Assembly (NCBI RefSeq): GCF_018977255.1
Contig: NW_024704742.1
Coordinates: 137,332,001-137,396,000 of the forward strand
DNA length: 64,000 nt
Direction of reading: 5' to 3'
Source of the DNA: Callorhinchus milii
Lineage: Eukaryota
In this document: positions 4,001 to 51,991 of the stretch, one piece after another
Layout of the letters: each line of letters starts with the position of its first letter
How positions within the stretch are numbered: the stretch's first letter is position 1
The notes under the pieces: model-generated
Database searches by the model: none
The model's input: only the letters and a program-made list of their open reading frames with translations
Told to the model about the DNA's origin: nothing
Position numbers and translations under genes: made by a program

Positions 4001-7000
4001 GTGTATCCTGTGAAGCGCTTTGAGACGTCTCGACGACGTGATTACGTGATTAGTCCAGCTTTTATTTTATAATGATAATAATCCTGGCATCTGGTACAGC
4101 GCCTTATCACGTCTTCGTGACGTCTCAGAGCGCTTCACAGGATACACTGTAACGTGAATTGACTGTATATTTGTGGGCAAAACGCAGCAGCCAATTGCCC
4201 ACAGCAGCGTCCCAGCAACAGTCGTGGATTGAGTGACCAAGTCATTATGTTATTTTATTTTTTTTCTTGAGGGATTATTATCAGACGTGTGGAGTAAGGA
4301 AACTTGCCCGAGGCGGGAATCGAACCCAGGTCTCTGGCTTGTGAGGCGAGCGCTCTAACCACTGAGCTACAGGACTCCATGAAGATGTCAGCCTGGCTCA
4401 GTGAGAGCGCTCTCTCTCTTCTGAGTCAGAAGGTTGTGCGTCGGGATTGGAAACACATAGTCTAAGATGACACTCCAATGCAGTGATGGGGGGGGTGGGT
4501 GGGGTGTTGCATTGTCAGAGGTGCCGTCCTTTGGTTGAGACATTAAACTGAGGTCCTGTCTGCCTGTTCAGGTGGATGTTAAAGATCCCCACGATCTATT
4601 TGAAAAGAGAAGGGAGTTTCTCTCTCTCTCTTCTGGTGTCCTGGCCAACAATCCCACAAATAACTCTGATGGCTCACTCCACGGCTGTTTGTGGGACGCT
4701 GCTGTGCGTACATTGGCTGCCGTTTTCGCCCACAAAATACACAGTCAATCCACTCTACAATATATTTTATGAAGCGCTTTGAGTCGACTCGACGATGTGA
4801 TAAGGTGCTGTATCAAATGCGTATCATGATTATTATTTTTATTATTATTATTACCTCTTCTGGTCACATCTTGTGGTTCCTTTTGACCATCCTCTAACCT
4901 CCAGCTACTCACTGTCTCCCCCATCAGCCCCTTGTGAGTGCTCCGAGGTTCTGCCTTGCGTGAAGGGCGCTATATAAATGCAAGTTGTTGTTGTCTACTC
5001 ACTGTTTTCCTCCCTCCCCAACCCCCCCACCCCACACACACACACACACACATATCTACTCACCATCTACCTGCTTGCGAGCCAATGATATCAATGGCAA
5101 GCTATGTGGTTTTAGCTGGTTAGACTCCAGCAGTTACCCCCAACTCACACTCTGGGGTCCCCAAGCCTTGGCTCTCACCAACCTGCGCCTAATACTCTCT
5201 GGAATTAGATAAACAGGATGCCTCCCTCCAGGGAGAGAGAGAGTATTCCATTCCAATAATCTATCAGCTTGGTTTGGAGACTCTTGAGCACGTTGATGGG
5301 TTTCCCCATGTGTCGGACACCCGGCTGAGCAAACAGAAGAGTCAACATCTCCTCCCCTGCTCTCACCTCCTCAGTCCCCACTCAAGCCAGTCACTCCATG
5401 CTCTCACTGATCCCTCTTCGCTCTCCCCCCCACCCCCCCAACACGCTCCCCCGCTGCTCTCCCCCATTCCCCACCACCCACCACTCCCCGTTCCCCCCTC
5501 ACCCCCCCACCATTCCCTCCCCCGCTCTCCCCCTTTCCTCTCCAACACCCTCGCTCTCCCCCCCCCACTCCTCTTCCCCCACTTTTTACCCCCTTCTCCC
5601 CCCTCCTTCGGTTTCCCCCCCTCACCCCTCTCCCCCCACAGTGTTCGAGGTGGTGACAGTCACGGGGGATGTGCGAGGGGCCGGCACTGATGCCAACATC
5701 TTCGTCACACTCTTCGGGGTGTTCGGGATCACCCCCAAAGTCCATCTGTCCAGCAAGTAAGTAACAGCCCCTCACACCCACTCCTCCCGGGGCAGGTGTG
5801 TGAGTGTGGGAGTGAGCGTCAATGTGTGTGTGAGTATGTGGGTCAGTGTGTGGATGAGTGTGTGCGAGTGAGTGAGTGTGACTGTGAGTGTGAGCATGAG
5901 TGTATGTGTATGAGTGTGCACGAGCGTGAATGTGAGCATCAGTGTATGTGAGGATGTGTGTGAATGTATCGTGAGTGTGAGTGACAACGAGTGCCAGTGA
6001 GTGGAACCATCGCTCGGTGGGAAGGGACATGGACCTGAGCTGTGGACAGGAAGATGGTGGCAATGCTCTCGCACATTTCATGCTGAGCTGCGTTACGCAC
6101 CGGGAAGCTCACAGGGTGGTCCTGGTACCTGCCAGCCACCCAGTGAGGCTCAAACTTGTGCGTGTCGGTTGTCAAATGACCAACTAGTGACTGTCCTCCT
6201 TGAATGGGGAGATAAGTAGGGGCTCCTTGGAGCTGAGGTAAATCAATGGCTCAGGTCATTGGCAGTTGCTGTCCAACCTTATTTAATTTAATCTGCAACA
6301 CGTACAGTGGAGTCCTGTAGCTCAGTGTTCAGAGCACTCGCCTCGCAACTGAAAGGACCTGGGTTCGATTCCTGGGCAGGCCAAAACCTTAGGCAAGTTT
6401 CCTTCCTCCACTATCCTTTCTACCCCACATCCGTGCCATTACCCGCTCTGCCTTGCCCCACCTCTGCAACATTGCCCGATTCCGCCACTGTCTCACACCG
6501 CAGGCCACCGAAACCCTCATACACGCATTCAATAACATCCAGGCTTAACTATGCAAACTCATTGCTTGTCGGCCTCCCCAACTCCTCCCTCCATAGGCTG
6601 CAGGTCATCCAGAGCTCTGCATCCTGTGTCCTCTCCCGCACCAGGCTCCGTTACCCTACCACCCCCATCCTCACCCTAGTTTACTGACTCCCATCACACC
6701 GAGGATACAGTTCAAGATCCTGGTTCTCACCTTCAAAGCCCTCCATGACCTTGCTCCCCTTTAGCTCTGTAACCTCCTAAACCCCCTACTGTCCTGCTCG
6801 CTCCCTCTGCTCAGCGGGCTCCGGCCTGCTTCCCGTCTCCCGCCTCACATGCCCCACCATTGGCAGGCGAGCCTTCTGCCACTCTGCCCCCACCCTCTGG
6901 AACTCCATCCCACAGTCCCTCTGCCTCATCCCCTCCCTTGCCACCTTCGAGACCTATCTCAAGATCCTCCTCTTTGACCGTGCTTTTGATCACCCTGCTT

Positions 7001-7166
7001 CCCCCCCGCCCTCCCCCCTCCCCAATCAATAGGTACATGGAAAGGAAACATTTGCAGGACTATGGTGTAACAGCGGGGGAGTGGGACTAGTGGGTAGTGG
7101 CACAGACACGATGGGCCTCCTTCTGTGCTGATGATTCCATGGTAAGGCGCTATATCAAACCCAAGG

Positions 7167-7198
<32 letters not shown>

Positions 7199-10100
7199 AG
7201 CTGTCTTCCGGAATGTGTGAAGTGAAGACTTCTGCTTAGCGCAGAGGAGCAAAAGCATTTTGTGGCGACCAGGAATCTTAACCGTAACTTTGTGTTCATC
7301 CCACCTACAGCACCGAGAAGAGGTACCGACTGCTTTTATAGGTTCAGCCCCACCTCAGACCAGGAGAACAATGACTGTGTTTGGCTTTAGTAGAGGTGCC
7401 TGTGTTGGTTTGCCAGAAAATGCATGATGTTCCAGACCTCTTTTGCTATATTTTGTCATCGGGCAGTCAGAGGTTAAAATAGGCGATGTCTCCGCTGTGA
7501 TCTACTCCCTAAGCCCCCCCCCACCCCCCCCCCCAGCCCATCAGAGAACCCCCATACGTGGAGTGGTGCAGTGTAGTGGTCAGCGCATTTGCCTCACAAG
7601 CGAGAGGACCCAGGTTCGATTCCTGGGCAGAGTGAAACCTTAGGCAAGTGTCCTTACTCCACAGGCCTCTGTTGGTGGTTAGTCCATTGGCGAATTGTAA
7701 TAATCCCTCCAAAAACAGACGTGTTAAGGCTCTCTATCAAATGCAAGGATTATTATTATTATGACCAGTCCTCGCCAGACTCCTCGCCCGTATACTCACT
7801 CACTCCAAACTCCGTTCCCGGATCACCCCAGTCCTCGTCAGGCTCCGCTGGCTCCATATCACAGAACGGATCGATTTCGAGATCCTCTCACTCATCTATA
7901 AATCGCTTCATGCTCTGGCACCTCCGTACCTCTCCGACCTCTTACTCCTGGAGCCACTGCCTGCTGGCTCTGGCCTTTTGTTTTGATTCGCCCTCGCCAC
8001 CCCACCCCCCCCCCGCTCCACCAACCGTGGCCACTTCACCCTGAACCTGTGGAACACTCTTCCTAAATCCCTGGCCTTGTCCCCTCCTCCTCTTTTAGAT
8101 CAAGTCTAAATACCTTCCTCTTCGACCCTGCCTGCCGTCACCTCCACCTTTTTCCCCAGCTCGGCATCAGGCTCCGCCACTGTTAGCCACTCCTCCATGC
8201 TATCCTGCATGGATGGCACTGTGTAAGTTCAAGTTGTTGTTGTTTACCTCTCCATGTGTACACACACCCTCCGGAAATCCCTCCGCCTTCCTCCCTCCCT
8301 CCCTCTCCGCTTTCAAAACCCGTCTAAAAGCCTTCCTCTTTGACCGCGCCTTTAGTCGACCCCCTTGTATTCCCCCCCACCGACCCCCCACCCCACCCCA
8401 ATCTCAGCTCCCATTCCATCTTTGTCAAGAGCTTTGAGACGCTCTCCAACATGGGAAGCTTTGCGTTAGTGTGAGTGGCTCTATGTTATTCTCTCCAACC
8501 CAGTGTTCATTCTTCACCACCAGATGGGGATGTTTGCCTTTTTATTTGAGGCAAACGGATCAAAGGGGGATAGAAAAATCATAGGAACTGAGGCACATAG
8601 GAACAGGAGTAGGCCATTCAGCCCGTCAAGCCTGTTCCGCCATTCTATTAGATCATGGCTGATCTGTACTTCAACTCCAATTGAGTGCCTCTTCCCCACC
8701 CACCCTCTCCCAGTGCGGGGCGCTGTATAAATGCAAGTACTGTTGTTGGTGTTGATGTTGATGGTGAGAGTTTAGCTTCTCGTCGGCAAACCATAGGAAA
8801 AAAGATGGAACATCATGAATTTTCAGAGCCTGAGCAGGCTGTGCGGGAGGAGTGTTGGTGTAGAGAGATGTACTGGTCTCTCGACTCTTTTCAAAGCTTC
8901 ACAAACTGCATGGGTTTCCAGACCTCAGTACCACAGCCTTTCAAAGGGACCCCATCCCATCCCATTCAGCCACAACCCCCACTCCTCTGAAGACTGCTGT
9001 GGCCCCTTTAAATCGGGAGCGGGACCTAGGAGTCGGGAGGTTGTGGGTTTGAGCGCCCCCCCCCTCCCCCCCCGCCCCACCCCCACCCCACGTCGGGGGC
9101 TTTGAACTCACAGTCCAGGCTGTGCGCTGTTCATGTGGATGTTGAAGATCCTTTGGGACTAGTGTCCTGACCGATAATTTCCCAGATACAATCATTTGCT
9201 CACTTCGTGGCTGTTTTTTGGGACCTTGCTGTACGCAAATCGGTTGCCCACAAAAATACTACAGTCACTACGCATGACAGTAAGCTCCTGTGAAGCGCTT
9301 TGAGGCATCTCGACGACGTGATAAGGTGGCGTGAGGTTGGTCATGGTGGTAAGAGGATGGAAAGCCATGCAAAATGGAGATGGAACAGATCAGATAACTT
9401 CCTGTTTCCCGGCCACTGGGGAGGGGTGGGGGGCGACATTGGAGAAGACGCAATGATGTTCCTGCTGTTTTATCAACAAACATTTGGACGGAGATGGAGG
9501 AAGTAGGGAGAGGAAGTTAGGGAAGAGGGAGGAGGCGTCTGGAGGCTAATAAAACACTGGAACATCACTCGTCTTCTGTCCTGAGTATCCGAACTTCCCA
9601 CCGCTACCCCCCACCCCAGGCGTGTCTGTCTCTCCTGAGGTTTTTATCCTTTTCCCCCGGGAAGGTAAAATACATGATATTTCAGACCCATTAGTCCTGC
9701 CCATTCTCCTGGGATTCCTGGGAAACGGCCGGGACTTCCCCCGGGAATGGCGGATAAATGGGATGGAACGCCATGTATGGTCTTATTTTTAGTGTTTTGT
9801 TTTGTGGGAAAAGCTTGCGCCGTTCCTGATTTAACGTGGCTGCCTCCCGCTCCCTCTCTCCCTCCCTCCCTCCCTCCTGCCGCAGCCCCCTATTTCCCAG
9901 GTAAGTGGTTCTTTCCTCTTCAGCGGAAGCCATTTTGCTTCAATCAGAAGAGGTCGATTTTTGTAAATCTCGGCCCCCCCCCGGTAAGAACATTACAACT
10001 CTCGCTCTTCCCCATGCCAAACCTTCCGCCCACGAAAGCTCCCTATGTAGAGCCTAAAATTTCCAACATTAAAAGTCATCCGCCTCCGATTGAAAGGAAA

Positions 10101-13100
10101 TGGCAGCCACCAGGAATTGCAGAGGAAGAGCCACCTGACTGCTGCCACCTGGTGGTGATGGTTCGTCGGTTGAGGAACGCCGCAAACTTTACTCCGTGAA
10201 TCTTATGTGATAAGTTTGTGACTTTTGAGATCGATTAGGATTCTTGCGGGATGAGGTTTCCGGGAGGGGGGAGTGAGGCCGCAGAGGAGTTGTGGGCTGG
10301 GGGGGAGGGGAAGGGGAGTGGCGAGGGGGAATGAGTGGGAAGGGAAGTTATGGGGGTAAGGAGAATGGTGGGAGAAGTGGGGCTACTGAGGGGTGGGAGG
10401 TTGGGGAAAGGAAAAGATGAGAGTGACAAGTGGGGGTGTCGGGGGTTCGGAGGTTGAAGTAACTTGTAATGTTTTATAATTACCAGAGAGAATGTGGGCT
10501 ATGAGTTGTCATCGAGTTGACGGGATTGAGGGGGGAAGAGGGGGAGTGGGGGGTAAGATGGGGAGGGGAGGGGAGAGTGTGCTGTGAAGGCTGTGTGAGG
10601 GCTCCAGGCCGCCTGACCCCCCACCTCCCTCTCTGTGTCTCCTCTATTCCAGGAGCAAGACGGCCTTTGAGAAGAACAAGACTGATGTCTTCCGGGTCAA
10701 GACGAACAATGTGGGGTTGCTCCAGAAACTCAGGTGTGTTGTTGCTTTGGTAACGCAATTGGGGAGGGGGCGGGCGGGGGGGGGGTGCAGAACAGTCGCT
10801 GGGGGCAAGGAATCATCCCACTCATCCCACTGTGCTTGGAAGGGCAGAGCAGTCACGAGAGTCTGGGAATCATCCCTCTTAGCTGTTAACAATGCAAACC
10901 AAAGCCCTACCTGGTAGGATGGTCCAAGCAGTGGGAAAGCTGGCCAGACTGCGCTCTGAGCTGGGTAGACTCCAGCAGTTACCCCAACACACGCTCTGAG
11001 GTCCTCAAGCCTTGGCTCTTGCCAACCCGCGCCTAATATTCTCCGGAATTAAGTAAGCGGGATGTGTCCCTCCAGGGAGAGAGAGAGAGGTATCCATTCC
11101 AACAATCTATCTCTGGGATTTCCGTGCGGAGATGGGATGCAGGGAATTCCCAGTTTGGTTTGGAGACTCTTAAGCAACGGTGATGGGTTTCTCCATGTGT
11201 CAGACACCCGGCTGACCGCCCCCCCACCACCCCCCCCAAAAAATAATCTGTATTTTTGGCATGGTATTGCTGTGCTGTTGCGATTGTATCGCTGTGTTGT
11301 TTCCATGGTAACACACGGTGCTGTTGCTTGTTAATGCGGTGTTATTGCCATAGTAACGGCTTCACTTCGCTGTGTTGCCAGGATCGAGCACGACAACACG
11401 GGAATGAACGCCAGCTGGTTCCTGGACCGCGTGGTGGTGACCGAAATGAACCGGCCACATCTGCGCTTCTACTTCCCCTGTAACCAATGGCTGAGCCGCG
11501 AGGAGGGCGATGGACTGCACGTCAGGGACCTCCTGGGCAGCCTCAACCCCATGGATGTGCCCAAACGTGAGTCTGAAACTCTCCATGTTACTCCCACCTT
11601 TCCCAACATAACCCATCCCAACATAACCCAGCCCAACCCCAGCCCAACTCAACCCCAGCCCAACCAAACCCAACCCAACCCCAGCCCAACTGAACCCAGC
11701 CCAACCCAACTCAACCCATCCCAACCCAACCCAAACTCAGCCCAGCCCAACTCAACCCAACCCAACCCAATATCAGCCCAACTAAACCCAGCCCAGCCCA
11801 ACCTAATCTAACCCAGCCCAAACCCAGCCCAACCCAACCCCATCCCAACATAACTCATCCCAACATAACCCATCCCAACATAACCCAACCAAACATAACC
11901 CAACCCAACTCAACCCAACCACAGCCCAGTCCAGCCTAACTGAACCCAGCCCAACCCAACCTAATCTAACCCAGCCCAATCCAACCCATACCCAGCCCAA
12001 TCCCTTCCCAACCCCAGCCCAATCCAAGCGACCCCAGTCCAACCAAACCCCAGATCAACCTAACCCCACCCCAGTCCAACCCAACCCCAGCCCAACCCCA
12101 GCCCAACCCAATCCTAGCCCAGTCCAATCCATCCCAACCCCAGCCCATCCCAACCCCAGCCCAACCCAACCCCAGCCCAACCCAATACAACTCCAACCCA
12201 GCTAACCCAACCCCAACCCAGCCCAACCTAAGCTAACTCAGCCCAGCCTCAGCCCAACCCAACCCTAGCCCAGCCCAACCAAACCCCAACCCAGCTAACC
12301 CAACTCCAACCCAACCCCAGGCCAACCCTAGCCCAGCCCAACCAAATCCCAAGACAGCTAACTCAAACCCAGCCCAACCCAACCTAAGCTAACCCAACCC
12401 AACCCCAGCCCAACCCCAAACTAACCCCAACCCAGCCCAACCTAACCCAGCCCAGCTCAACTCAACCCAGCCCCAGCTCAACTCACCCCAATTCAACCCA
12501 ACCCCAGCCCAACCCAACCCAACCTAACCTAACCCAGCCCAACCGAACTCCAGCCCAGCCCAACCCCAACCCAACCCAGCCCAACCCTGTGTATACTGTG
12601 TATGTATGTTCTGTGGGCACATGTCTCTGCCTGTGGCATATGGGTCTCTAGCATGTCTTTGTGGGCTGTGCATGTCTGTGGTGTACACTCTGTATATATA
12701 GTGTGCGTGTATAGTATGTGTACTGTGCTTGCGTGTGTGCAGTGTGTGAGTGAGGTGTGTGTGTGGTGTGTGTGTGTATGCAGTGCGTTGTGTGCGCATG
12801 TGTGTGTGCGTGCCCTGTGTTCCCCTCCTGTTATCATTGTCGCTGCTGTGGTAAAGCTGTCTCTCTCTCTCTTGCTCTCTCTCCCCAGTAAACAAGTACA
12901 TTGTCAGTGTGTTCACACCCGATATGAAGGGCAGTGGCACAGACGCGGACGTCTTCCTTAACATGTTCGGCGAGAATGGGGACACGGGTAAAACCGTAAC
13001 CATAACCGTGTGCTCCACAGCACCGCCCGCATTTACACGCCTTCACAGCTGTGTGTGTGTGTGTGTGTATCTCTCTCTCTCTCTCTCTCTCTTGCTCATT

Positions 13101-14085: not shown

Positions 14086-17000
14086 GGAGAGGGTGATGGA
14101 GAGAGAGGGAGAGAGTGAGAGCGAGTTTACTGTTGTGTTACGGTGGGTGAGGACAGGCTGTGCCGTGGCCTGGTCTCCCCTGAACCCCAGTGTGTGTGTG
14201 TGTGTGTGTGTGTGTTTGTGTGTGTTTTCCCGCTCGGGCAGGTATAATCCCTGCGTGTGTTGTATCTCTAGGTGTGCATTGACGACATTGGCAATAAAAC
14301 CCTGTACGAATTCCCTGTGAACCGCTGGTTTGCGATGGACGAAGACGATGGCAAAATCCAGCGGGATGTCCTGGTGGGAGGGATGCACGCCACAGGTGAG
14401 CGAGGGAATGGGGGCTCCAGATTCCCTCCCGCTCTTAGCCTGAGGACCATTCCATCTTTTTTTCCTCTTGGTCTGACACATGTGGAAACCCATCACTGTT
14501 GCTTAAGAGTCTCCAAACTAAGCTGAGAATTCCCGACACATGGAAATCCCAGAGATAGATTGTTGGAATGGAATGCGCTCTCTCACTCTCTCCCTGGAGG
14601 GAGTCATCCTTCTTACCTAATTCCGGAAAGTATTAGGCGCAGGTTGGCAAGAGCCAAGGCTTGGGGACCCCCAGGCGTTGGGGGAACTGCTGGAGTCTAA
14701 CCAGCTAAAATCACATAGCCTGCCATTGATATCAGCTACGACCACCCTACAGGAGTCTTGTAGCTCAGTGTGGAGTAAGGAAACTTGCCCAAGGTTTCAC
14801 CCTCTGCCTGGAATTGAACTCAGTCTCTCGCTTGCAAAGCGAGTGCTCTAACCACTGAGCTACAAGACACAACACAACCGATTGGCTGTTGTGTTTCATC
14901 TGTAAAATACAGTCCACTTTACAGTGTGTCCGTGAAGCGCTTTTGGACGTCTGAATGACCTGATAGGGCATCATATCAAATGCAAGGATTATTCATAGAA
15001 TCATAGAATTGTACAGCACAAAAAGAGGCCATTCGGCCCATCGAGTCTGTGCGGCTCTTTGAACAGAGCAATTAATGTCAGTCCCACTCCTCAGCCCTTT
15101 CCCCATAACCTGCAATCCCATCCTCTTCAAATACCCGTCCACCGCGTTTTTAAAAGTAGTTATCGAATCGGCCTCGACCGCCCTTTCAGGCAATGGGTTC
15201 CAGATCCAAACAACTCGTTGCGTTAAAATTTCTTCTCACCTCCCCTCGGCTTCTTTTAGAGACTATTTTGAATCTGTGACCCCGAGTCACCGACACACCC
15301 ACCAGTGGGAACAGTTTTTCCTTTCTAACCTATCAAATCCCCTCATGATTTTGAAGACCTCTATTAGGTCCTCGTAACCTTCTCTGCTCCAATGAGAATA
15401 ATCCCGGTCTCTCTCGCCTTTCCTCATCACGGTCCCTCATTCCTGGTCCCATCCTCGTAAATCTCCTCTGTACCCTTTCCAATGCCTTAACGTCCTTCCT
15501 ATAGTGTGGGGCCCAGAACTGGGGCAGTATTCTAACTGAGGCCTAACCAATGTTTATATGGGTTAATCATCACCTCCTGACTCTTGTACTCTATGCCCCT
15601 ATTTATAAAGCCCAGTATCCCATATGCCCTTTTTACAGCCTTATCTCCCTGTCCTGCCACCTTCAAGGATTCATTTACCTGCCCCCCCCAGGTCTCTCTG
15701 TTCTTTTGCCCCCTTTAAGATTGTATTATCGCCTATATTGGCCCTCATTCTTTATACCAAAATGCATTACCTCACATTTCTCCACATTGAAACTCATCTG
15801 CCATGTGTCACCCATTTTACCGTTCTGTCTATGTCTTCCTGCAGTCGGCTCCTATCCTTCTCACTGTTTACCCCCCTACCCAATAATATATTATTATTCT
15901 ATTCAGCCCCTCGAGCCAGTTCAGCCATTTTAATTGAATCGTGGGCTGATCTGTGCCTCAACCCCAATCATTAATAAATATTAAAATGTCGATCCGATGA
16001 ACTATTGCTCTGTCCAGGGATTGTTTACAATGTCTCGGTGATAACGGGCGACGTGCGAGGGGCCGGCACTAACTCCAAGATCCACATCCTGCTCCACGGC
16101 ACCAAGGGGATGAAGAACAGCGGGAAGATCTTTCTAGAAGGCGGGCAGTTTGAGCGGGCGCAGATCGACATCTTCAACGTGGAGATCGCGGCGCTGCTCA
16201 GCCCCCTCAGCCGTGTCACCATCGGCCACGATAACTGCGGCGTCAGCTCAGGATGGTTCTGTGAGAAGGTGAGAGGGGAAGGCGGGGTAAATACCCGGTT
16301 ATTTGCCCTAACTTGTGCCTCAGCCGCTCCGTGCTCTCATCTCTAGGCAGGGGTTTGTGGGTTCAAGCCCCCACACATCATTCCCCCCATCATCCACCCG
16401 CCCATGTTGTCTCAGTGCAGGCTGCGGCTCCAGTGTAGCACTGGGGGGGAGGGGGGGTTGTGTGGTGCGGAGAGAGCACCTCATTGACATGGAACCTCTC
16501 CTCTCCAACTTTAATAATAATAGAAATCCCGTGTTGCTGGTGTGAGCGGTTACAGCGATGGTTACGGTGATGGTGACTGTGCTACCGGTTACAGGTGGTG
16601 GTTTACTGCCCGTTCACCGGTATTGAGCAGACGTTCCCGTGTGGGAAGTGGCTGGACGAGGACGAGGGAGACGGGCTGATCGAGCGGGAGTTGTACGAGA
16701 TGGTTTCACTGCGGCAGAAACGTCAAAAGAGCAAGTATCACATCCAGCCCCACCCTGACTCCGCCCCAGCCCCACCCGAACCCCGCCCCTAGCTCCACCT
16801 CAATTCCGCCCCCAGCTCCACCCTGACTCTGCCCCCAGCTCCAATGCCAGGTCCACCCTGATTCCGCCCCCAGCTCCACCCTCGACTCCTCCTCAGCTCC
16901 GCTCTCGGCTCCGCTCTCTCTCCACCCTCGGCTCTCCACTCTGCCCGAGCTCAGCCTCACCCTCCAGCGCCCAGACGTGCTCCAAGATGCTACACTCATA

Positions 17001-45141: not shown

Positions 45142-48054
45142 CGCTGTGTCCTGGCGGCAGGAGCTGGGACGGACGCCAACGTGTTCCTCATCGTGTTCGG
45201 GGAGAACGGGGACACGGGCACGCTGGCCCTGAAGGAGTCCAACAACAGCAACAAGTTTGAACGCAAACGGACGGACATCTTCAAGTTCCCGGACATGCTG
45301 AGCCTCGGCAACCTGTCCAAGGTCCGTGTGTGGCACAACAACAAGGGTGAGAGGACAGCCTGGGGGAGGGAGGGGGCGGGGGGGAGGTGGGGAGCGCGAA
45401 GAGCATAGCTCGGGGGGACTGGGTAAGAGCCCAGCTGGGAAGAGGTGGGGGGAGAGACAGGAGTAATGGGGAGCACAAGTTTGGAGGGCTATGGGGAGAG
45501 CGCGGGGGCTCAGTCTCACTGTAACTGAGACCAGGAGGTGTAACGAGGGCAGGTTGACCCTTTTGCCCACTCCCCGTGTGCCCAGGGCTCGCTGCAGGCT
45601 GGCACCTGGAGCTGATTGAGGTGAAGGACGAGGCCATGGACAAGATCTTCCGCTTCCCGTGTGACCGCTGGCTCGCCAAGGACGAGGACGACAGGCAGAT
45701 ACTCCGCGAGCTCGCCTGTGCCAACAACGACATCCTGGATTTAATGGAACGCACACGTAGGTTACACTCTTCTCTCCCCTTCCTCACTCTCTCTATTCCT
45801 CCCTTCCTCTCCCACTCCCTCTCCGACTCCCCCTCCCTCCCTCAATTCCTCCCTCTCACCCTCCCTTCCTCCTTCTGTCCCTCCCTCCCTCCTCTCCCAC
45901 ACTTCCTCACTTGCGCTCTCTCTTCCCCCACCCCCTCACCTCCCTTCCTCCCTCCATCCCTCTCTCCCTGCTCCTCTCTGACTCTCTCCATCCCCTTCTT
46001 TCACTGTCTACTGTGTGATCTACTGTTTGATGGCTTTGAGACACTATCTTGGGAGAAAGGTGCTGTATAAATGCTTGTTGTTGTTGTTGTTGTTTGTTTG
46101 TTGTTGACCCGTGGCTCCTGGTTTACCAGGCTCCTGGGCAGTGATCCTGGAGTCTGGCTGATGTCTCTCCCGCCTTTCTCCAAGGCTACGAGATCCGAAC
46201 CAAAACCAGCGACAGAGATGACGCTGAGTCCAAGGAGAACGTCTGGATGGTCCTCGAGGGCAAGAAGGGACGATCCAAGGAATTTATGCTGGAAAACTCC
46301 ACCAAGAGGAAGAAGTTCCTGAGGTAACATGAGACTAGCTGCTCTACAGAGCTCTACAAAGATTCCACCCCCATATATAACGCTGGCAACGCTTACACAA
46401 ACCACGTGTCTGTCAAGTAACCCTCCATCTCCTTGAGGGGAAGGTAAGTGGAGAGCTGAACTGAATGTCAGAATGGATCCACCCCTCTGTGGGGGTCTCG
46501 AGTCCGGTTCCTGGGCCAGGCTGGTCCGCAGTCCAGATTAGAGCGTTCACCTCGAAACTGAGACGACCCAGGATTGATTTCCAGGTGAAACTTTAGGCAA
46601 GTTTCCTTACTACACCCGCCTCTGTTTACGTAGCAGTAAGTAATAACCCGGTTGTTAGTCAATTGGTGAATCGCTTTCGGGGGAAAACAATCTCTTCAAA
46701 CAAATATTGGTCACTCAATCCATGACTGCTCGTGGGACACTGGGTGCTGCGTTTCGGCCACAAAATACACAGCGCTTTAAGATGTTTCAACGGCGAGATG
46801 CAGCGCTACATCAGATGCAAGGATTATTAGTAATGATAGTATGAAATTTTGTGGTTATAAAGCCATTATTATTATTATTATTATTATATGCTCACAGGGG
46901 GGCCATAGATAAGTTTGAGTTTTCCTCCAAGAACGTGGGTGACATCGCCACGGTGTGTGTCGGCCACTGCCCGCGGGACGGCAAGAAGGTCACGGCCAAG
47001 AGCCACGCTCACTGGCATGTGGCTGAGATTGTGGTCACCGAGATGGAGGTCGGCAACAGGTAACTTGGGGGAGATGGAGGAGGGGCAGCTGTGTGGCTCT
47101 GTGTCTCTCCCCAGTCACTGTGTGGCTCTGTGTCTCTCCTCAGTCACTGTGTGGCTCTGTGTCTCTCCCCCCAGTCACTGTGTGGCTCTGTGTCTCTCCC
47201 CAGTCACTGTGTGGCTCTGTGTCTCTCCCCAGTCACTGTGTGGCTCTGTGTCTCTCCCCAGTCAATGTGTGGCTCTGTGTCTCTCTCCCCAGTCACCGTG
47301 TGACTCTCTCTCCCGGGTCACTGTGTGACTCTGTGTCTGTCTCTCTCCCCAGTTATTGTGTGACGCTGTGTCTCTCCCCCCAGTCACTGTGTGACTCTGT
47401 GTCTCTCTCCCCCCAGTCACTGTGTGGCTCTATGTCTCCCTCCCAGTTGCTGTATGACTCTCTCCCTGGTCGCTGTGACTCTCTCCCTGGTCGCTGCGAC
47501 TCTCTCCCTGGTCGCTGTGACTCTCTCCCTGGTCGCTGTGTCTCTCTCCCTGGTCGCTGTGTCTCCCTTTCAGGTATGTGTTTGAGTGTAACAGTCGGGT
47601 GACCCTAAGCCACCGGAGGGACGACTTCAAAGCCTTCGAGTGCACCAAGATGGTGGAGAGCTTCGCCAGCAAGGTCCGCAACCTGGTGCCGGTGAAATAC
47701 GAGATCATCGTGGTGACGGGGGACGTGAAGGGCGCGGGGACAGATGCCAACGTCTTTCTGACCATCTACGGCACCAACGGCAACTCCGGCTGCCGGCAGC
47801 TCAAGCAGAAGTTCCGGAACCTGTTTGAGCGCGGACGGACAGACCGCTTCCTGCTGGAGATGCTGGACCTGGGCGAGCTTTACCGTCTCCGGGCCGAGCA
47901 GGACGGGGGAGGACACGCGGCCGGGTGGCTGCTGGAGCGCATGGAGATCACAAACATCGCCACCGGCGTCAGCACCATCTTCCCTTGCGGCAAGTGGCTG
48001 GACAGCAAGAGAGGCGACGGCAGGACCTTTCGGGAAATCTACCCTAAATTTTAA
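538..48054 (+). CDS. LOXHD1: Lipoxygenase homology PLAT-domain protein 1 (LOXHD1 family), whole gene span, 41 coding exons, ~2338 aa
   Basis: Repeated PLAT signatures ([14 protein letters not shown]...YG..GDTGER, KFERG..D.F, IGHDN...GW.L..V, FPC.RWL..EDDG...REL). The exons join in frame with matching phases and sum to 7017 nt, ending at TAA. The domain order follows human LOXHD1 as recalled. Ortholog versus paralog is not resolved. Confidence 0.95.
1128..1510 (-). mobile_element. tRNA-derived SINE (family A, long form) with (ATT)n tail
   Basis: Reverse complement has A/B boxes (GTAGTGGTTA / GGTTTGATTCCC), a conserved core (GTGTGCAATTGGCTGC) and an L2-like tail ATCAAATGCAAGGATTATT. More than 20 full or partial copies in the window, e.g. 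~4075-4380(-), 24413-24830, 30775-31087, 39245-39600, 40489-40957, 43160-43480, 48100-48460, 55740-56063(-). Confidence 0.85.
3208..3680 (+). mobile_element. tRNA-derived SINE family B (resembles the shark DeuSINE SacSINE1)
   Basis: CAGCCTGGCTCAGTGGTAG head, GGGTTCAAACCC B box, TTAAACCGAGGTCCCGTCTG..GTCCTGGCCAA body and a 3' core shared with family A. Other copies at ~1882-2225, 4388-4855, 17075-17740, 23720-24115, 35130-35615. Confidence 0.75.
5642..5756 (+). CDS. LOXHD1: LOXHD1 exon 2
   Basis: cag|(V)[38 protein letters not shown]|gtaagt. Confidence 0.93.
6500..7000 (+). mobile_element. L2-clade LINE 3' fragment (decayed ORF2 C-terminus)
   Basis: [25 protein letters not shown]...[19 protein letters not shown]. 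Related fragments at ~7770-8240, 22600-23045, 24870-25200, 33000-33530(-), 37690-38020(-), 43490-44040(-). Confidence 0.8.
10653..10733 (+). CDS. LOXHD1: LOXHD1 exon 3
   Basis: cag|[27 protein letters not shown]|gtgtgt. Confidence 0.92.
11299..11357. promoter_or_regulatory. Two RFX X-box motifs
   Basis: GTTTCCATGGTAAC (11299-11312) and ATTGCCATAGTAAC (11344-11357) versus consensus GTTNCCATGGNAAC. Confidence 0.5.
11382..11566 (+). CDS. LOXHD1: LOXHD1 exon 4
   Basis: cag|[37 protein letters not shown]...NPMDVPK|gtgagt. Confidence 0.93.
11600..12587. repeat. (CCCAA/CCCAG)n pentanucleotide satellite
   Basis: About 1 kb of degenerate 5-mer repeats, seen directly. Confidence 0.92.
12889..12987 (+). 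CDS. LOXHD1: LOXHD1 exon 5
   Basis: cag|[32 protein letters not shown]|gtaaaa. Confidence 0.92.
13812..13960 (+). CDS. LOXHD1: LOXHD1 exon 6
   Basis: cag|[49 protein letters not shown]|gtttgt. Confidence 0.93.
14272..14395 (+). CDS. LOXHD1: LOXHD1 exon 7
   Basis: tag|[41 protein letters not shown]|gtgagc. Confidence 0.93.
14993..15870 (-). mobile_element. CR1-clade LINE 3' fragment
   Basis: Minus-strand [22 protein letters not shown] (CR1 ORF2 C-terminus) and a TTCTATGATTCTATGA tail. Confidence 0.82.
16018..16268 (+). CDS. LOXHD1: LOXHD1 exon 8
   Basis: cag|[23 protein letters not shown]...[11 protein letters not shown]...[25 protein letters not shown]|gtgaga. Confidence 0.94.
16595..16730 (+). 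CDS. LOXHD1: LOXHD1 exon 9 (ends at a GC donor)
   Basis: cag|[46 protein letters not shown]|gcaagt; only the GC donor keeps frame with exon 10. Confidence 0.88.
17133..17465 (+). mobile_element. Young family-A SINE (short subfamily, tRNA-Ala-like head) nested in a family-B SINE
   Basis: Near-identical to the copies at 19370, 36868, 56579 and 60455(-); anticodon-like loop TTTGCAA; flanked by a TAAGC direct repeat. Confidence 0.88.
17745..18432. repeat. (CT)n-CCGGYGA compound minisatellite
   Basis: Repeated ctctctctcccggtga units ending just before the exon 10 acceptor. Confidence 0.9.
18455..18615 (+). CDS. LOXHD1: LOXHD1 exon 10
   Basis: cag|(K)[53 protein letters not shown]|gtgtgt. Confidence 0.92.
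18638..18752. repeat. 14-bp minisatellite (CACCCCGAGCGTGT)n
   Basis: About 7-8 tandem copies just after the exon 10 donor. Confidence 0.88.
19018..19104 (+). CDS. LOXHD1: LOXHD1 exon 11
   Basis: cag|[29 protein letters not shown]|gtatgt. Confidence 0.92.
19370..19690 (+). mobile_element. Young family-A SINE
   Basis: GTGGAGTCCTGTAGCTCAGTGGTTAGAGC...GGATTATTATT; near-identical to the 17133 copy. Confidence 0.88.
19827..20540 (-). mobile_element. Probable solo LTR
   Basis: AT-rich 714-bp block. On the minus strand it starts GTAGTGGG, has a TATA-like TATTTATAAG and AATAAA signals, and ends CCCTTACA. Confidence 0.5.
20832..20967 (+). CDS. LOXHD1: LOXHD1 exon 12
   Basis: cag|[45 protein letters not shown]|gtgagt. 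Confidence 0.92.
21138..21728. repeat. (GAT/GTT)n trinucleotide expansion
   Basis: Seen directly; produces poly-D/V and poly-M/L pseudo-ORFs. Confidence 0.93.
21738..21892 (+). CDS. LOXHD1: LOXHD1 exon 13
   Basis: cag|(V)[51 protein letters not shown]|gtgagt. Confidence 0.92.
22246..22406 (+). CDS. LOXHD1: LOXHD1 exon 14
   Basis: cag|[54 protein letters not shown]|gtctgt. Confidence 0.92.
23200..23485. repeat. ~22-bp minisatellite (ACACAGTAAATACACCTTATAC)n
   Basis: About a dozen degenerate tandem copies. Confidence 0.8.
24160..24236 (+). CDS. LOXHD1: LOXHD1 exon 15
   Basis: cag|[25 protein letters not shown]|gtgagt. Confidence 0.9.
25228..25424 (+). CDS. LOXHD1: LOXHD1 exon 16
   Basis: cag|[32 protein letters not shown]...[19 protein letters not shown]|gtaggt. 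Confidence 0.92.
25807..25999 (+). CDS. LOXHD1: LOXHD1 exon 17
   Basis: tag|[41 protein letters not shown]...[12 protein letters not shown]|gtgagg. Confidence 0.92.
26055..26793 (+). repeat. ~66-bp minisatellite (family M)
   Basis: About 11 copies of CCCCACTGGAGCTCTCTACTCTAACCCCATTCGCTGCTCTCTCCCCATCGTGTCTGTGCTGGTGCTCGCT. Confidence 0.92.
26933..27093 (+). CDS. LOXHD1: LOXHD1 exon 18
   Basis: cag|[53 protein letters not shown]|gtgggt. Confidence 0.92.
27533..27842 (+). CDS. LOXHD1: LOXHD1 exon 19 (PLAT half with a short K/E insert)
   Basis: cag|[18 protein letters not shown]...[20 protein letters not shown]...[29 protein letters not shown]|gtgtgg. Confidence 0.9.
28372..28523 (+). CDS. LOXHD1: LOXHD1 exon 20
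   Basis: cag|[50 protein letters not shown]|gttcgc. Confidence 0.92.
28799..28932 (+). CDS. LOXHD1: LOXHD1 exon 21
   Basis: tag|[44 protein letters not shown]|gtgagt. Confidence 0.91.
29467..29606 (+). CDS. LOXHD1: LOXHD1 exon 22
   Basis: cag|[46 protein letters not shown]|gtcagg. Confidence 0.91.
30205..30309 (+). CDS. LOXHD1: LOXHD1 exon 23
   Basis: cag|[34 protein letters not shown]|gtacat. Confidence 0.91.
31144..31272 (+). CDS. LOXHD1: LOXHD1 exon 24
   Basis: cag|[42 protein letters not shown]|gtgagt. Confidence 0.92.
32088..32252 (+). CDS. LOXHD1: LOXHD1 exon 25
   Basis: cag|[54 protein letters not shown]|gtaagt. Confidence 0.92.
32671..32852 (+). CDS. LOXHD1: LOXHD1 exon 26
   Basis: tag|[60 protein letters not shown]|gtgagt. 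Confidence 0.92.
33532..34057. repeat. 30-bp near-perfect minisatellite (GGCAGGGAGGCAGGCTGGCACGGTGTGACT)n
   Basis: About 17 tandem copies with few variant positions. Confidence 0.95.
34330..34446 (+). CDS. LOXHD1: LOXHD1 exon 27
   Basis: cag|[39 protein letters not shown]|gtgagg. Confidence 0.92.
34948..35110 (+). CDS. LOXHD1: LOXHD1 exon 28
   Basis: cag|[28 protein letters not shown]...DVEEPLE|gtgagt. Confidence 0.92.
36019..36173 (+). CDS. LOXHD1: LOXHD1 exon 29
   Basis: cag|[51 protein letters not shown]|gtcagt. Confidence 0.93.
36190..36540. repeat. (GGGGTCTGGGGTTAGAGAGAGAGA)n minisatellite
   Basis: Degenerate tandem copies filling intron 29. Confidence 0.85.
36608..36817 (+). CDS. 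LOXHD1: LOXHD1 exon 30
   Basis: cag|[37 protein letters not shown]...[23 protein letters not shown]|gtacat. Confidence 0.92.
36868..37185 (+). mobile_element. Young family-A SINE
   Basis: Same subfamily; fills most of LOXHD1 intron 30. Confidence 0.87.
37220..37331 (+). CDS. LOXHD1: LOXHD1 exon 31 (linker)
   Basis: cag|[37 protein letters not shown]|gtgagt; phases 0/1 bridge exons 30 and 32. Confidence 0.85.
37365..37650. repeat. (AAC/AGT/AAT)n low-complexity repeat
   Basis: Seen directly. Confidence 0.85.
38861..39069 (+). CDS. LOXHD1: LOXHD1 exon 32
   Basis: tag|[28 protein letters not shown]...[24 protein letters not shown]|gtagga. Confidence 0.92.
39752..39937 (+). CDS. LOXHD1: LOXHD1 exon 33
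   Basis: cag|[25 protein letters not shown]...[31 protein letters not shown]|gtgggt. Confidence 0.93.
40300..40427 (+). CDS. LOXHD1: LOXHD1 exon 34
   Basis: cag|[43 protein letters not shown]|gtgggt. Confidence 0.92.
40725..41097. repeat. 136-bp near-perfect inverted repeat with a 101-bp spacer
   Basis: 40725-40860 is the reverse complement of 40962-41097 with one mismatch. Confidence 0.92.
41474..41591 (+). CDS. LOXHD1: LOXHD1 exon 35
   Basis: aag|[39 protein letters not shown]|gtgagc; weak acceptor. Confidence 0.88.
42916..43093 (+). CDS. LOXHD1: LOXHD1 exon 36
   Basis: tag|[59 protein letters not shown]|gtcaga. Confidence 0.9.
44610..45020 (-). mobile_element. Unclassified poly(A)-tailed retroposon 3' fragment (family C)
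   Basis: About 12 copies; the least deleted share the 3' end ...GTCAGACACCCGGCTGA(G/C)C + A-rich tail and have variable 5' truncation. Copies at ~5090-5335(+), 10870-11216(+), 14470-14735(-), 29055-29390(+), 31335-31620(-), 34574-34853(-), 44100-44463(+), 49000-49580(-), 52490-52990(-). Confidence 0.7.
45161..45346 (+). CDS. LOXHD1: LOXHD1 exon 37
   Basis: cag|[61 protein letters not shown]|gtgaga. Confidence 0.94.
45586..45756 (+). CDS. LOXHD1: LOXHD1 exon 38
   Basis: cag|[56 protein letters not shown]|gtaggt. Confidence 0.92.
46185..46323 (+). CDS. LOXHD1: LOXHD1 exon 39
   Basis: aag|[46 protein letters not shown]|gtaaca. Confidence 0.9.
46898..47059 (+). CDS. LOXHD1: LOXHD1 exon 40
   Basis: cag|[54 protein letters not shown]|gtaact. 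Confidence 0.91.
47088..47568. repeat. ~29-bp and 21-bp minisatellites filling LOXHD1 intron 40
   Basis: (CCCAGTCACTGTGTGGCTCTGTGTCTCTC)n then (CTCTCTCCCTGGTCGCTGTGA)n. Confidence 0.88.
47574..48054 (+). CDS. LOXHD1: LOXHD1 exon 41 (last PLAT repeat and stop)
   Basis: cag|YVFECNS...[33 protein letters not shown]...[24 protein letters not shown]. Confidence 0.94.
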
Positions 48055-51873: not shown

Positions 51874-51991
51874 TCAGCTGTCCCCCAGCAGTTGGGTCTG
51901 GATGTCCAGCCTGCAGAGCGGGCACTTACTGCTGGTTTCCAACCACTGGTCCACACAGGTCTGGTGAAACACGTGCATACATGGCAGCCGC
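51874..51991 (-). CDS. RNF165: RNF165-like exon 8 (RING C-terminal half and stop)
   Basis: cag|[38 protein letters not shown]. Confidence 0.92.

Follow-up and report, generated by a model that had tools for sequence, protein, structure and literature searches.

Our in silico analysis indicates that a conserved 12-nt microexon at positions 7311-7322 encodes the insertion in the loop of the first PLAT repeat (PLAT1) of LOXHD1. This exon, situated 2.6 kb upstream of the 15-nt stretch at positions 9886-9900, is supported instead of the latter. An earlier note on this DNA had proposed an alternatively spliced insertion in the PLAT1 loop at the junction of exons 2 and 3; this idea holds, but the exon in question is the 12-nt one and not the 15-mer. 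As a used exon, the 15-nt site is an unproven candidate judged by its sequence.

The conserved 12-nt microexon in intron 2 of LOXHD1

The window (the whole 64-kb stretch of Callorhinchus milii DNA that we analyzed) possesses the complete coding region of LOXHD1 on the + strand, and in a homolog search the last exon proved 100% identical to UniRef entries of C. milii LOXHD1. When the RefSeq protein XP_042187934.1 was mapped onto the window, 41 exons were placed between positions 538 and 48054, with an intron of 4,896 nt in phase 2 (intron 2) leading from exon 2 to exon 3. In this RefSeq model, exon 2 is spliced directly to exon 3 (SSK-SKTAFEK), and the 12-nt exon is skipped. The features of this part of the gene are as follows.

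5642-5756, + strand: LOXHD1 exon 2, coding for the beginning of PLAT1; AA/gtaagt at its 3' end, phase 2; matches XP_042187934.1
7311-7322, + strand: 12-nt microexon CACCGAGAAGAG, changing K to NTEKR in the PLAT1 loop; ccacctacag upstream, gtaccg downstream
7421-7426, + strand: TGCATG, RBFOX-type motif with a putative role, 99 nt downstream of the 12-nt exon
10653-10733, + strand: LOXHD1 exon 3, mapped from the RefSeq protein; X-box-like motif inside at 10716-10729
11382-11566, + strand: LOXHD1 exon 4, carrying the Met (MNASWFL) where several teleost isoforms begin

To survey the PLAT1 loop across LOXHD1 proteins, we combined three homolog searches (the best 120 of 161, 806 and 822 matches) with three cluster look-ups, and obtained 531 proteins. 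The loop was readable in 312 of them; the other 219 were fragments without PLAT1, or invertebrate or divergent sequences. Among the matches listed, 272 of the readable loops had the standard length, 18 were one residue shorter, and 22 carried four additional residues. The 18 shorter loops are likely artefacts of the gene models at the phase-2 junction. The four-residue insertion consists of NTEKR or NTDKR in place of K and is located exactly at the exon 2/3 junction. Its carriers, all RefSeq, Ensembl or GenBank gene models, come, among the matches listed, from teleosts (with both types of paralog), from gar and lungfish, and from two birds; one of the bird models is of low quality and reads THTDKR. 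Grouped by their printed names, the models of cartilaginous fishes (21/21), mammals (54/54), amphibians (25/25) and non-avian reptiles (24/24) all lacked the insertion, and it was present in two of the 34 birds with a readable loop. Annotation models of lungfish, Megalobrama and gar contain both the included and the skipped form of the 12-nt exon. The isoforms X1 and X2 of lungfish (2464 and 2460 amino acids) and those of Megalobrama (2386 and 2382 amino acids) differ by just these four residues.

The insertion of 15 nt that the earlier note had put forward fared differently: among the matches listed, no loop of the 312 readable proteins possessed the five or nine additional residues that a 15-nt or a 27-nt product would give, and neither NPLF nor PLFP was present in the first 800 residues of any collected protein. 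The absence of the 15-mer from the shark and ray models says little, since the 12-nt exon is skipped there as well. The '+27 nt' band listed in the earlier note suggests that the 12-nt exon had already been noticed.

A pattern bounded by AG and GT and back-translated from NT[ED]KR had a single match in the 64-kb window, and this match is the 12-nt stretch at 7311-7322 in intron 2. Its inclusion is in frame (SSNTEKRSK), and with a length in the range of 3-27 nt, AG...GT boundaries and a preserved reading frame it has the properties of a microexon. A teleost loxhd1 fragment (L026), found via exon 4 as the sole near match in a set of 20 loci, carries the 12-nt exon at 599-610, 1,422 nt before exon 3, and 10 of the 12 bases are identical. 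Since the exon is present both in the C. milii window and in the teleost locus, it would predate the split between cartilaginous and bony fishes, and we infer that it dates to the jawed-vertebrate ancestor.

For the evaluation of splice signals, we used position weight matrices derived from the 40 donors and 40 acceptors of LOXHD1 itself. The 12-nt exon has weak splice scores in both species examined, and its donors, GAG/GTACCG in C. milii and GAG/GTATTT in L026, score 1.1 and 2.0, respectively. No TGC is located between the branch point and the AG of the exon in C. milii or L026; the nearest TGC in C. milii is found at -78, upstream of other AGs, and L026 contains none within 100 nt of the acceptor. 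In both species, the 12-nt exon thus lacks the UGC near the acceptor and the strong donor of the SRRM3/4 class. The TGCATG motif downstream of the exon is present in C. milii and absent in L026; passages of PMC10987577 describe a downstream UGCAUG as generally favouring exon inclusion. We consider it likely that the 12-nt exon is spliced in or out in C. milii as in bony vertebrates, and the inclusion of this exon in C. milii, taken on its own, is predicted with high confidence.

An AlphaFold model for a fragment of shark LOXHD1 (built on a 40-sequence alignment; mean pLDDT 80, and 83-88 by 10-residue block in the loop region) places the exon 2/3 junction in a loop (128-140) between two beta strands. 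The stretch holding this loop varies between 39 and 44 residues across 10 PLAT repeats of C. milii LOXHD1. Given this location and the variable length, a short PLAT1 insertion is, as judged from the model, likely tolerated and would alter a surface loop rather than the fold.

Splice signals and chance occurrence of the 15-nt site

The 15-nt site is composed of three neighbouring features.

9826-9885, + strand: branch-like CTGATTTAAC (9826-9835), C-rich (CCCT)n pyrimidine tract, TGC and acceptor CGCAG, all read in the sequence
9886-9900, + strand: 15-nt candidate exon CCCCCTATTTCCCAG, frame kept (NPLFPR), without protein support
9901-9906, + strand: perfect donor CAG/GTAAGT, outscoring all annotated LOXHD1 donors on the gene's own matrix

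When we re-read the sequence, all elements that the earlier note had described between 9826 and 9906 were found in place. The polypyrimidine tract, given there as about 40 nt long, contains 37 pyrimidines in the 40 nt before the acceptor; it is a (CCCT)n sequence with 27 C, 10 T and 3 G in 9843-9882. TGC follows at 9878-9880 and the acceptor CGCAG at 9881-9885, so that the UGC is positioned 8 nt before the acceptor end; the branch-like sequence lies about 52 nt upstream, and an AG-free zone of 72 nt precedes the candidate. The donor had rightly been called perfect: it scores 12.1 and is stronger than all 40 donors of the gene, whose scores range from 3.2 to 11.2. With a score of 10.0, the acceptor can be compared to the LOXHD1 acceptor median of 9.9, and the final AG of the 15-mer (9899-9900) is itself acceptor-like (score 10.3). 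Inclusion of the 15-mer keeps the frame, as had been claimed (SSNPLFPRSK), and the same is true when it follows the 12-nt exon (SSNTEKSPLFPRSK, which contains NTEKSPLFPR). The candidate has the length (3-27 nt), the AG...GT boundaries and the preserved frame of a microexon, and it possesses the UGC between branch point and AG, the extended tract and the strong donor of the SRRM3/4 type. Twelve of its 15 nucleotides are pyrimidines; the last 15 nt of the 39 internal LOXHD1 exons contain 3-10, and the 40 intron ends 7-13. By this count, the 15-mer looks more like a pyrimidine tract than like coding sequence.

These signals can be read as those of a second, lineage-restricted microexon of 15 nt, included by SRRM3/4 in hair cells or neurons, either without the 12-nt exon (NPLFPR) or behind it (NTEKSPLFPR). 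Passages of PMC10987577, PMC12871342 and 10.1101/2024.09.17.613571 describe UGC, a distant branch point, an AG-free zone and a strong donor as typical of neural microexons, and the UGC at -8, the branch-like sequence at about -52, the 72-nt AG-free zone and the very strong donor of the candidate fit this description. Both products would be in frame in a PLAT1 loop that is variable in length. We nevertheless regard a second microexon as unlikely, since the neighbouring 12-nt exon was caught 22 times in the same 312 proteins in which +5 and +9 residues were never seen, the L026 intron contains no matching site, and the exon is pyrimidine-rich and its tract C-rich. U-poor tracts are weaker U2AF2 sites.

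Conservation of the motif, which the earlier note had wished to see assessed across fishes, was not found in the one teleost intron compared: L026 has no donor with a good acceptor at most 27 nt upstream and no sequence similarity to 9800-9960. The strongest donor of the L026 interval, CAG/GTAAGG, is located 702 nt before exon 3; the corresponding distance of the C. milii donor is 752 nt. Alignment of the intron flanks to L026 gave no stretch out of six that beat 200 shuffles, the flanks of the 12-nt exon included. Since the flanks of the real 12-nt exon fail too, the missing flank similarity is uninformative at teleost distance. Taken together, neither the 312 protein loops nor the teleost intron revealed evolutionary conservation of the 15-nt exon.

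How often such a site arises by chance was assessed by scanning for exons of 3-27 nt. At the loose level, donor and acceptor had to score above the lower quartile of the LOXHD1 sites; the strict thresholds sit just under the candidate's own scores and hence flatter it. As background we used 464 kb, consisting of 20 neighbouring 10-kb stretches on both strands and the antisense strand of the window. The loose scan of 40.5 kb of LOXHD1 introns returned the 15-nt candidate as the only microexon-like site, and the background contained four loose and no strict matches, which corresponds to an expectation at the loose level of about 0.04 for intron 2 and 0.36 for LOXHD1. A looser pattern (ten pyrimidines, YAG, up to 24 nt, MAGGTAAGT) had 585 forward and 132 reverse matches genome-wide, and its control, the reversed pattern, had 182 and 437. 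Since the larger figures count overlapping starts, we compared 132 with 182; with the columns read in this way as one count per site, the pattern is not enriched over its control. Sites of this looser kind occur in fewer than 1% of genes, yet a genome contains hundreds of them. A pattern tailored to the candidate had two matches in the genome and one in the control, a comparison that is weak because of the tailoring. MAG/GTAAGT, expected 0.44 times by chance in the LOXHD1 introns, is present twice, the second time at 46443. Attractive and infrequent as the 15-nt site is, sites of this kind will turn up by chance when many windows are scanned.

It is accordingly conceivable, although we hold this only tentatively, that the 12-nt exon is real and that 9826-9906 is an unused pseudo-exon, in which a (CCCT)n microsatellite chanced to end beside a consensus donor. 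The tract of the candidate is indeed a simple repeat that also matches other places in the genome, the looser pattern shows no genome-wide excess over its control, chance supplies 0.44 perfect donors per gene, and the site has no counterpart in the proteins or in the teleost intron. Furthermore, the site was found by scanning for such motifs, so that the picking of a rare chance match is to be expected. Set against an unused site are its singularity in the LOXHD1 introns and the lack of strict matches in the background, the slight (and tailored) surplus of two genome matches over one, and its position in the sole intron with a real microexon, beside a cluster of X-box-like motifs.

Further readings of the site were considered and rejected. 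Beyond the (CCCT)n tract, it has no other genome match that would point to a repeat-borne origin. As a local copy of the exon 3 acceptor it reaches a similarity of 33, which is bettered by 7 of the 40 LOXHD1 acceptors. A longer cassette exon ending at 9900 would acquire a stop from each of the frame-keeping AGs from 9511 to 9814, and a coding first exon ending there finds no in-frame ATG after the stop at 9827.

The earlier note had also pointed to the YAG/GTAAGT motif of recursive splicing, and this fit holds in letters: a tract followed by YAG/GURAGU is present at 9900, which scores 10.3 as an acceptor. In a recursive reaction, the AG at 9899-9900 would be used as acceptor, the donor would be regenerated, and intron 2 would be removed in two steps. 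The regenerated donor CAA/GTAAGT would be identical to the donor of exon 2 in all nine bases, and the site is the only one of the YAG/GTRAG kind in the window, with none in the 464-kb background. A weaker donor at 9983 (score 7.4) could allow 9901-9983 to serve as the defining cryptic exon; this 83-nt exon would open with a stop. Passages of PMC10156609 report recursive sites over a range of intron sizes, but also a median intron near 550 kb for sawtooth-validated human sites. The very long host intron of classical vertebrate recursive sites, which is no absolute rule, is not found here (4,896 nt). Under the scanning model, the first AG after the branch point is encountered first. At this site, it is the AG at 9884-9885, 15 nt before the one in question. 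Moreover, in L026 an acceptor-like site at 1510 is followed only by GTTATT. We therefore judge recursive splicing at 9900 to be improbable.

Sequencing runs with a C. milii label also cover parts of the region. In a DNA-like run (X1), 9886-9917 is unchanged in one contig with a depth of 4.8; this run differs from the window by seven substitutions and two insertions in about 840 nt, and the sparing of 9886-9917 is what chance would lead one to expect. Six probable RNA runs, whose tissues are not on record, were compared with 5600-11600 (X5-X8) and with 9420-10820 (X5, X9 and X10). In the latter comparison, no contig was placed. The contigs of the six runs leave 9821-10021 and 11429-11600 uncovered, the repeat at 9840-9885 being skipped in placement, and 15 of 156 contig joints, those listed and from contigs without cover of 9821-10021, contain no exon junction.

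A possible non-coding alternative first exon at the 9900/9901 donor

The donor at 9900/9901 might close a non-coding alternative first exon. This tentative reading is placed just ahead of, and nearly level with, that of an unused site; both placements were made by judgement and not by computation. We consider it probable that the 15-mer does not serve as a coding exon. In such an arrangement, a predicted RFX-driven internal promoter would start the non-coding first exon; its joining to exon 3 would yield a protein that begins at the exon 4 Met and is devoid of most of PLAT1. The 12-nt exon at 7311-7322 would supply the PLAT1 loop insertion, and the 15-nt stretch would be non-coding. If a non-coding first exon ended at 9900, the CT-rich tract before a perfect donor would be accounted for without any corresponding peptide. 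The motifs in question were found with an RFX X-box consensus that was chosen after one site (11299-11312) had been noticed.

9404-9416, - strand: X-box-like motif and predicted RFX site, some 480 nt before the donor at 9900
10716-10729: X-box-like motif within exon 3
10741-10754, + strand: X-box-like motif directly after the exon 3 donor
11299-11357, + strand: X-box-like motif (11299-11312) followed by a copy with one mismatch (11344-11357), both before exon 4

All four exact matches of the window to this post hoc pattern are clustered in 9.4-11.3 kb. The motif occurs twice in 200 kb of neighbouring DNA; 0.08 are expected from the local composition, and none of 2,000 simulations reached three. 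Passages of PMC5838959 place functional X-boxes mostly within 500 bp of the start site and, permissively, between -2300 and +1400. Five teleost RefSeq isoforms (from Sander, Perca and tilapia, and two from Cyprinodon) start at the exon 4 Met, and in the tilapia isoform X3 an N-terminus of its own is joined to exon 3. The position of the strongest L026 donor, 702 nt before exon 3 as compared to 752 nt in C. milii, also favours this reading. Run X6, a probable RNA run in which DNA can be present, has a depth of 4.8 over 9620-9820, a weak hint in which the piece itself is not listed; 9620-9820 had no second match in a genome search.

Several observations speak against a first exon closed by the 9900 donor. 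Of the four X-boxes, three are located 0.8-1.4 kb downstream of 9900 and thus nearer to exon 4, and a start in intron 3 served by these downstream X-boxes would explain the exon 4 isoforms without the 9900 donor. The CpG density at 9.6-10 kb (observed/expected 0.63) does not stand out, perfect donors are expected 0.44 times per gene by chance, and no exact X-box match is present in L026. The 'MHCR' start of a sterlet protein may be merely the intron end read into exon 3. Finally, the UGC, the frame and the long AG-free zone suit a microexon better than a first exon would need.

A combination of these elements, in which intron 2 is a regulatory hub, appears to us highly doubtful. It would comprise a 12-nt microexon of ancestral age, which persists from chimaeras to birds and was lost in mammals, and a 15-nt SRRM4-type microexon of cartilaginous fish whose donor also ends an RFX-driven first exon. 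If true, the PLAT1 loop would exist in as many as four versions, alongside a form without PLAT1, and these would differ by the type of hair cell or electroreceptor.

Relation to known systems

LOXHD1 is a deafness gene. Passages of PMC11387651 and PMC8051682 report that LOXHD1 keeps TMC1 channels at the force-transmission site of hair cells and that splice isoforms can compensate mutations; the splicing mentioned in these passages concerns the alternative coiled-coil exons 19-20 and the region around PLAT10, not PLAT1. In the supplements of PMC7652395, Loxhd1 appears solely as a row of qRT-PCR primers. In the literature searched, no paper describes a LOXHD1 microexon; the 12-nt exon may be listed in VastDB, in subscription papers or in supplements on bioRxiv, for instance those of a preprint on zebrafish srrm4 microexons. 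The charged four-residue insertion in PLAT1 would be a small and directly testable handle on the isoform diversity of hair cells, as it appears to have been kept since the jawed-vertebrate ancestor and is found in relatives of the zebrafish and in none of 54 mammalian models. Since public gene models of other species already contain the 12-nt exon implicitly, it is a modest find; the 15-nt site adds interest only if RNA shows its use.

Internal starts that drop N-terminal PLAT repeats are a feature of LOXHD1 isoforms in teleost RefSeq models and in Ewing sarcoma. The short isoform of Ewing sarcoma, as described in passages of PMC9716578, has an oncofusion-driven internal start at exon 8, whereas the start in intron 2 of C. 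milii is only predicted. With vertebrate recursive sites and RS-exons, the 15-nt site shares the tract, the YAG/GTAAGT motif and a donor 83 nt downstream; it differs by its short intron and the competing AG 15 nt upstream.

The neural microexons governed by SRRM3/4 (3-27 nt) resemble the 15-nt candidate in length, frame, the UGC between tract and AG, the distant branch point and the strong donor. Passages of PMC12871342 give a median branch point position of 45 nt upstream for neural microexons, and passages of 10.1101/2024.09.17.613571 state that donor strength tracks inclusion at high SRRM4. The candidate differs from them in the composition of its pyrimidine tract and in that the 312 loops and L026 revealed no conservation. 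The 12-nt exon, in turn, is like neural microexons in length, frame, deep conservation and the insertion into a surface loop, but it has weak donors and no UGC between branch point and AG; the latter is also missing from about a quarter of the SRRM3/4 targets (passages of 10.1101/2024.09.17.613571). The C. milii RefSeq model lacks the insertion. The 12-nt exon corresponds to the annotated NT[E/D]KR isoforms of Protopterus (XP_043937946.1), Megalobrama (XP_048065052.1), gar (W5MZE7) and Parus major (XP_015507597.2), in which the same four residues are inserted at the same junction.

X-box-like motifs around exon 3

Four exact X-box-like motifs (predicted RFX sites), matched to a consensus pattern, are clustered around exon 3 of LOXHD1 (9404-11357), and no further exact copy was found in the whole 64 kb. 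Copies with one mismatch at 9713 and 11344 belong to the same cluster, one motif of which is located within coding exon 3. The cluster suggests that this region may function as an intragenic RFX promoter or enhancer.

Intron 2 and other splice sites

In X1, a DNA-like sequencing run carrying the same species label, one contig (depth 4.8) differs from the window at 9918-9973, just 3' of the donor (9900/9901) of the 15-nt candidate exon in intron 2: C is replaced by A at 9918, and 7 nt and 2 nt are inserted after 9920 and 9973, respectively.

The intron of a teleost loxhd1 locus fragment (L026) possesses an acceptor-like site at 1510 and a donor at 1330 that could end a candidate 51-nt exon (1280-1330) containing a stop. 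A second perfect donor (AAG/GTAAGT; intron 39, 46443) is positioned 120 nt downstream of the exon 39 donor and near a one-mismatch X-box-like motif (46408); no acceptor matching it was found. As judged by the fit to the RefSeq protein, a GC donor (AGA/gcaagt) closes exon 9 at 16730, creating a GC-AG intron.

Gene neighbourhood and 5' end

LOXHD1 is convergent with the gene for a RING-H2 protein; RNF165/ARK2C neighbours LOXHD1 in other vertebrates.

~51880-51990, minus strand: terminal exon of the RING-H2 protein gene; encoded peptide (15 protein letters not shown)...KCPLC

Exon 2 has a canonical acceptor at 5642. The RefSeq model carries the extra residues AHPSPPT ahead of this exon (5623-5642), for which no GT-AG join was found. 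The UniRef models A0A4W3HXD2, A0A4W3HXD7, and A0A4W3HUG3 are missing exons 1-4 and begin instead with TG-rich intron 4 sequence (12602-12836), translated into an N-terminus that looks spurious. In C. milii, exon 1 (538-1054) encodes a 172-residue N-terminus rich in lysine and glutamate; PLAT1 is much closer to the start in mammalian LOXHD1 models.
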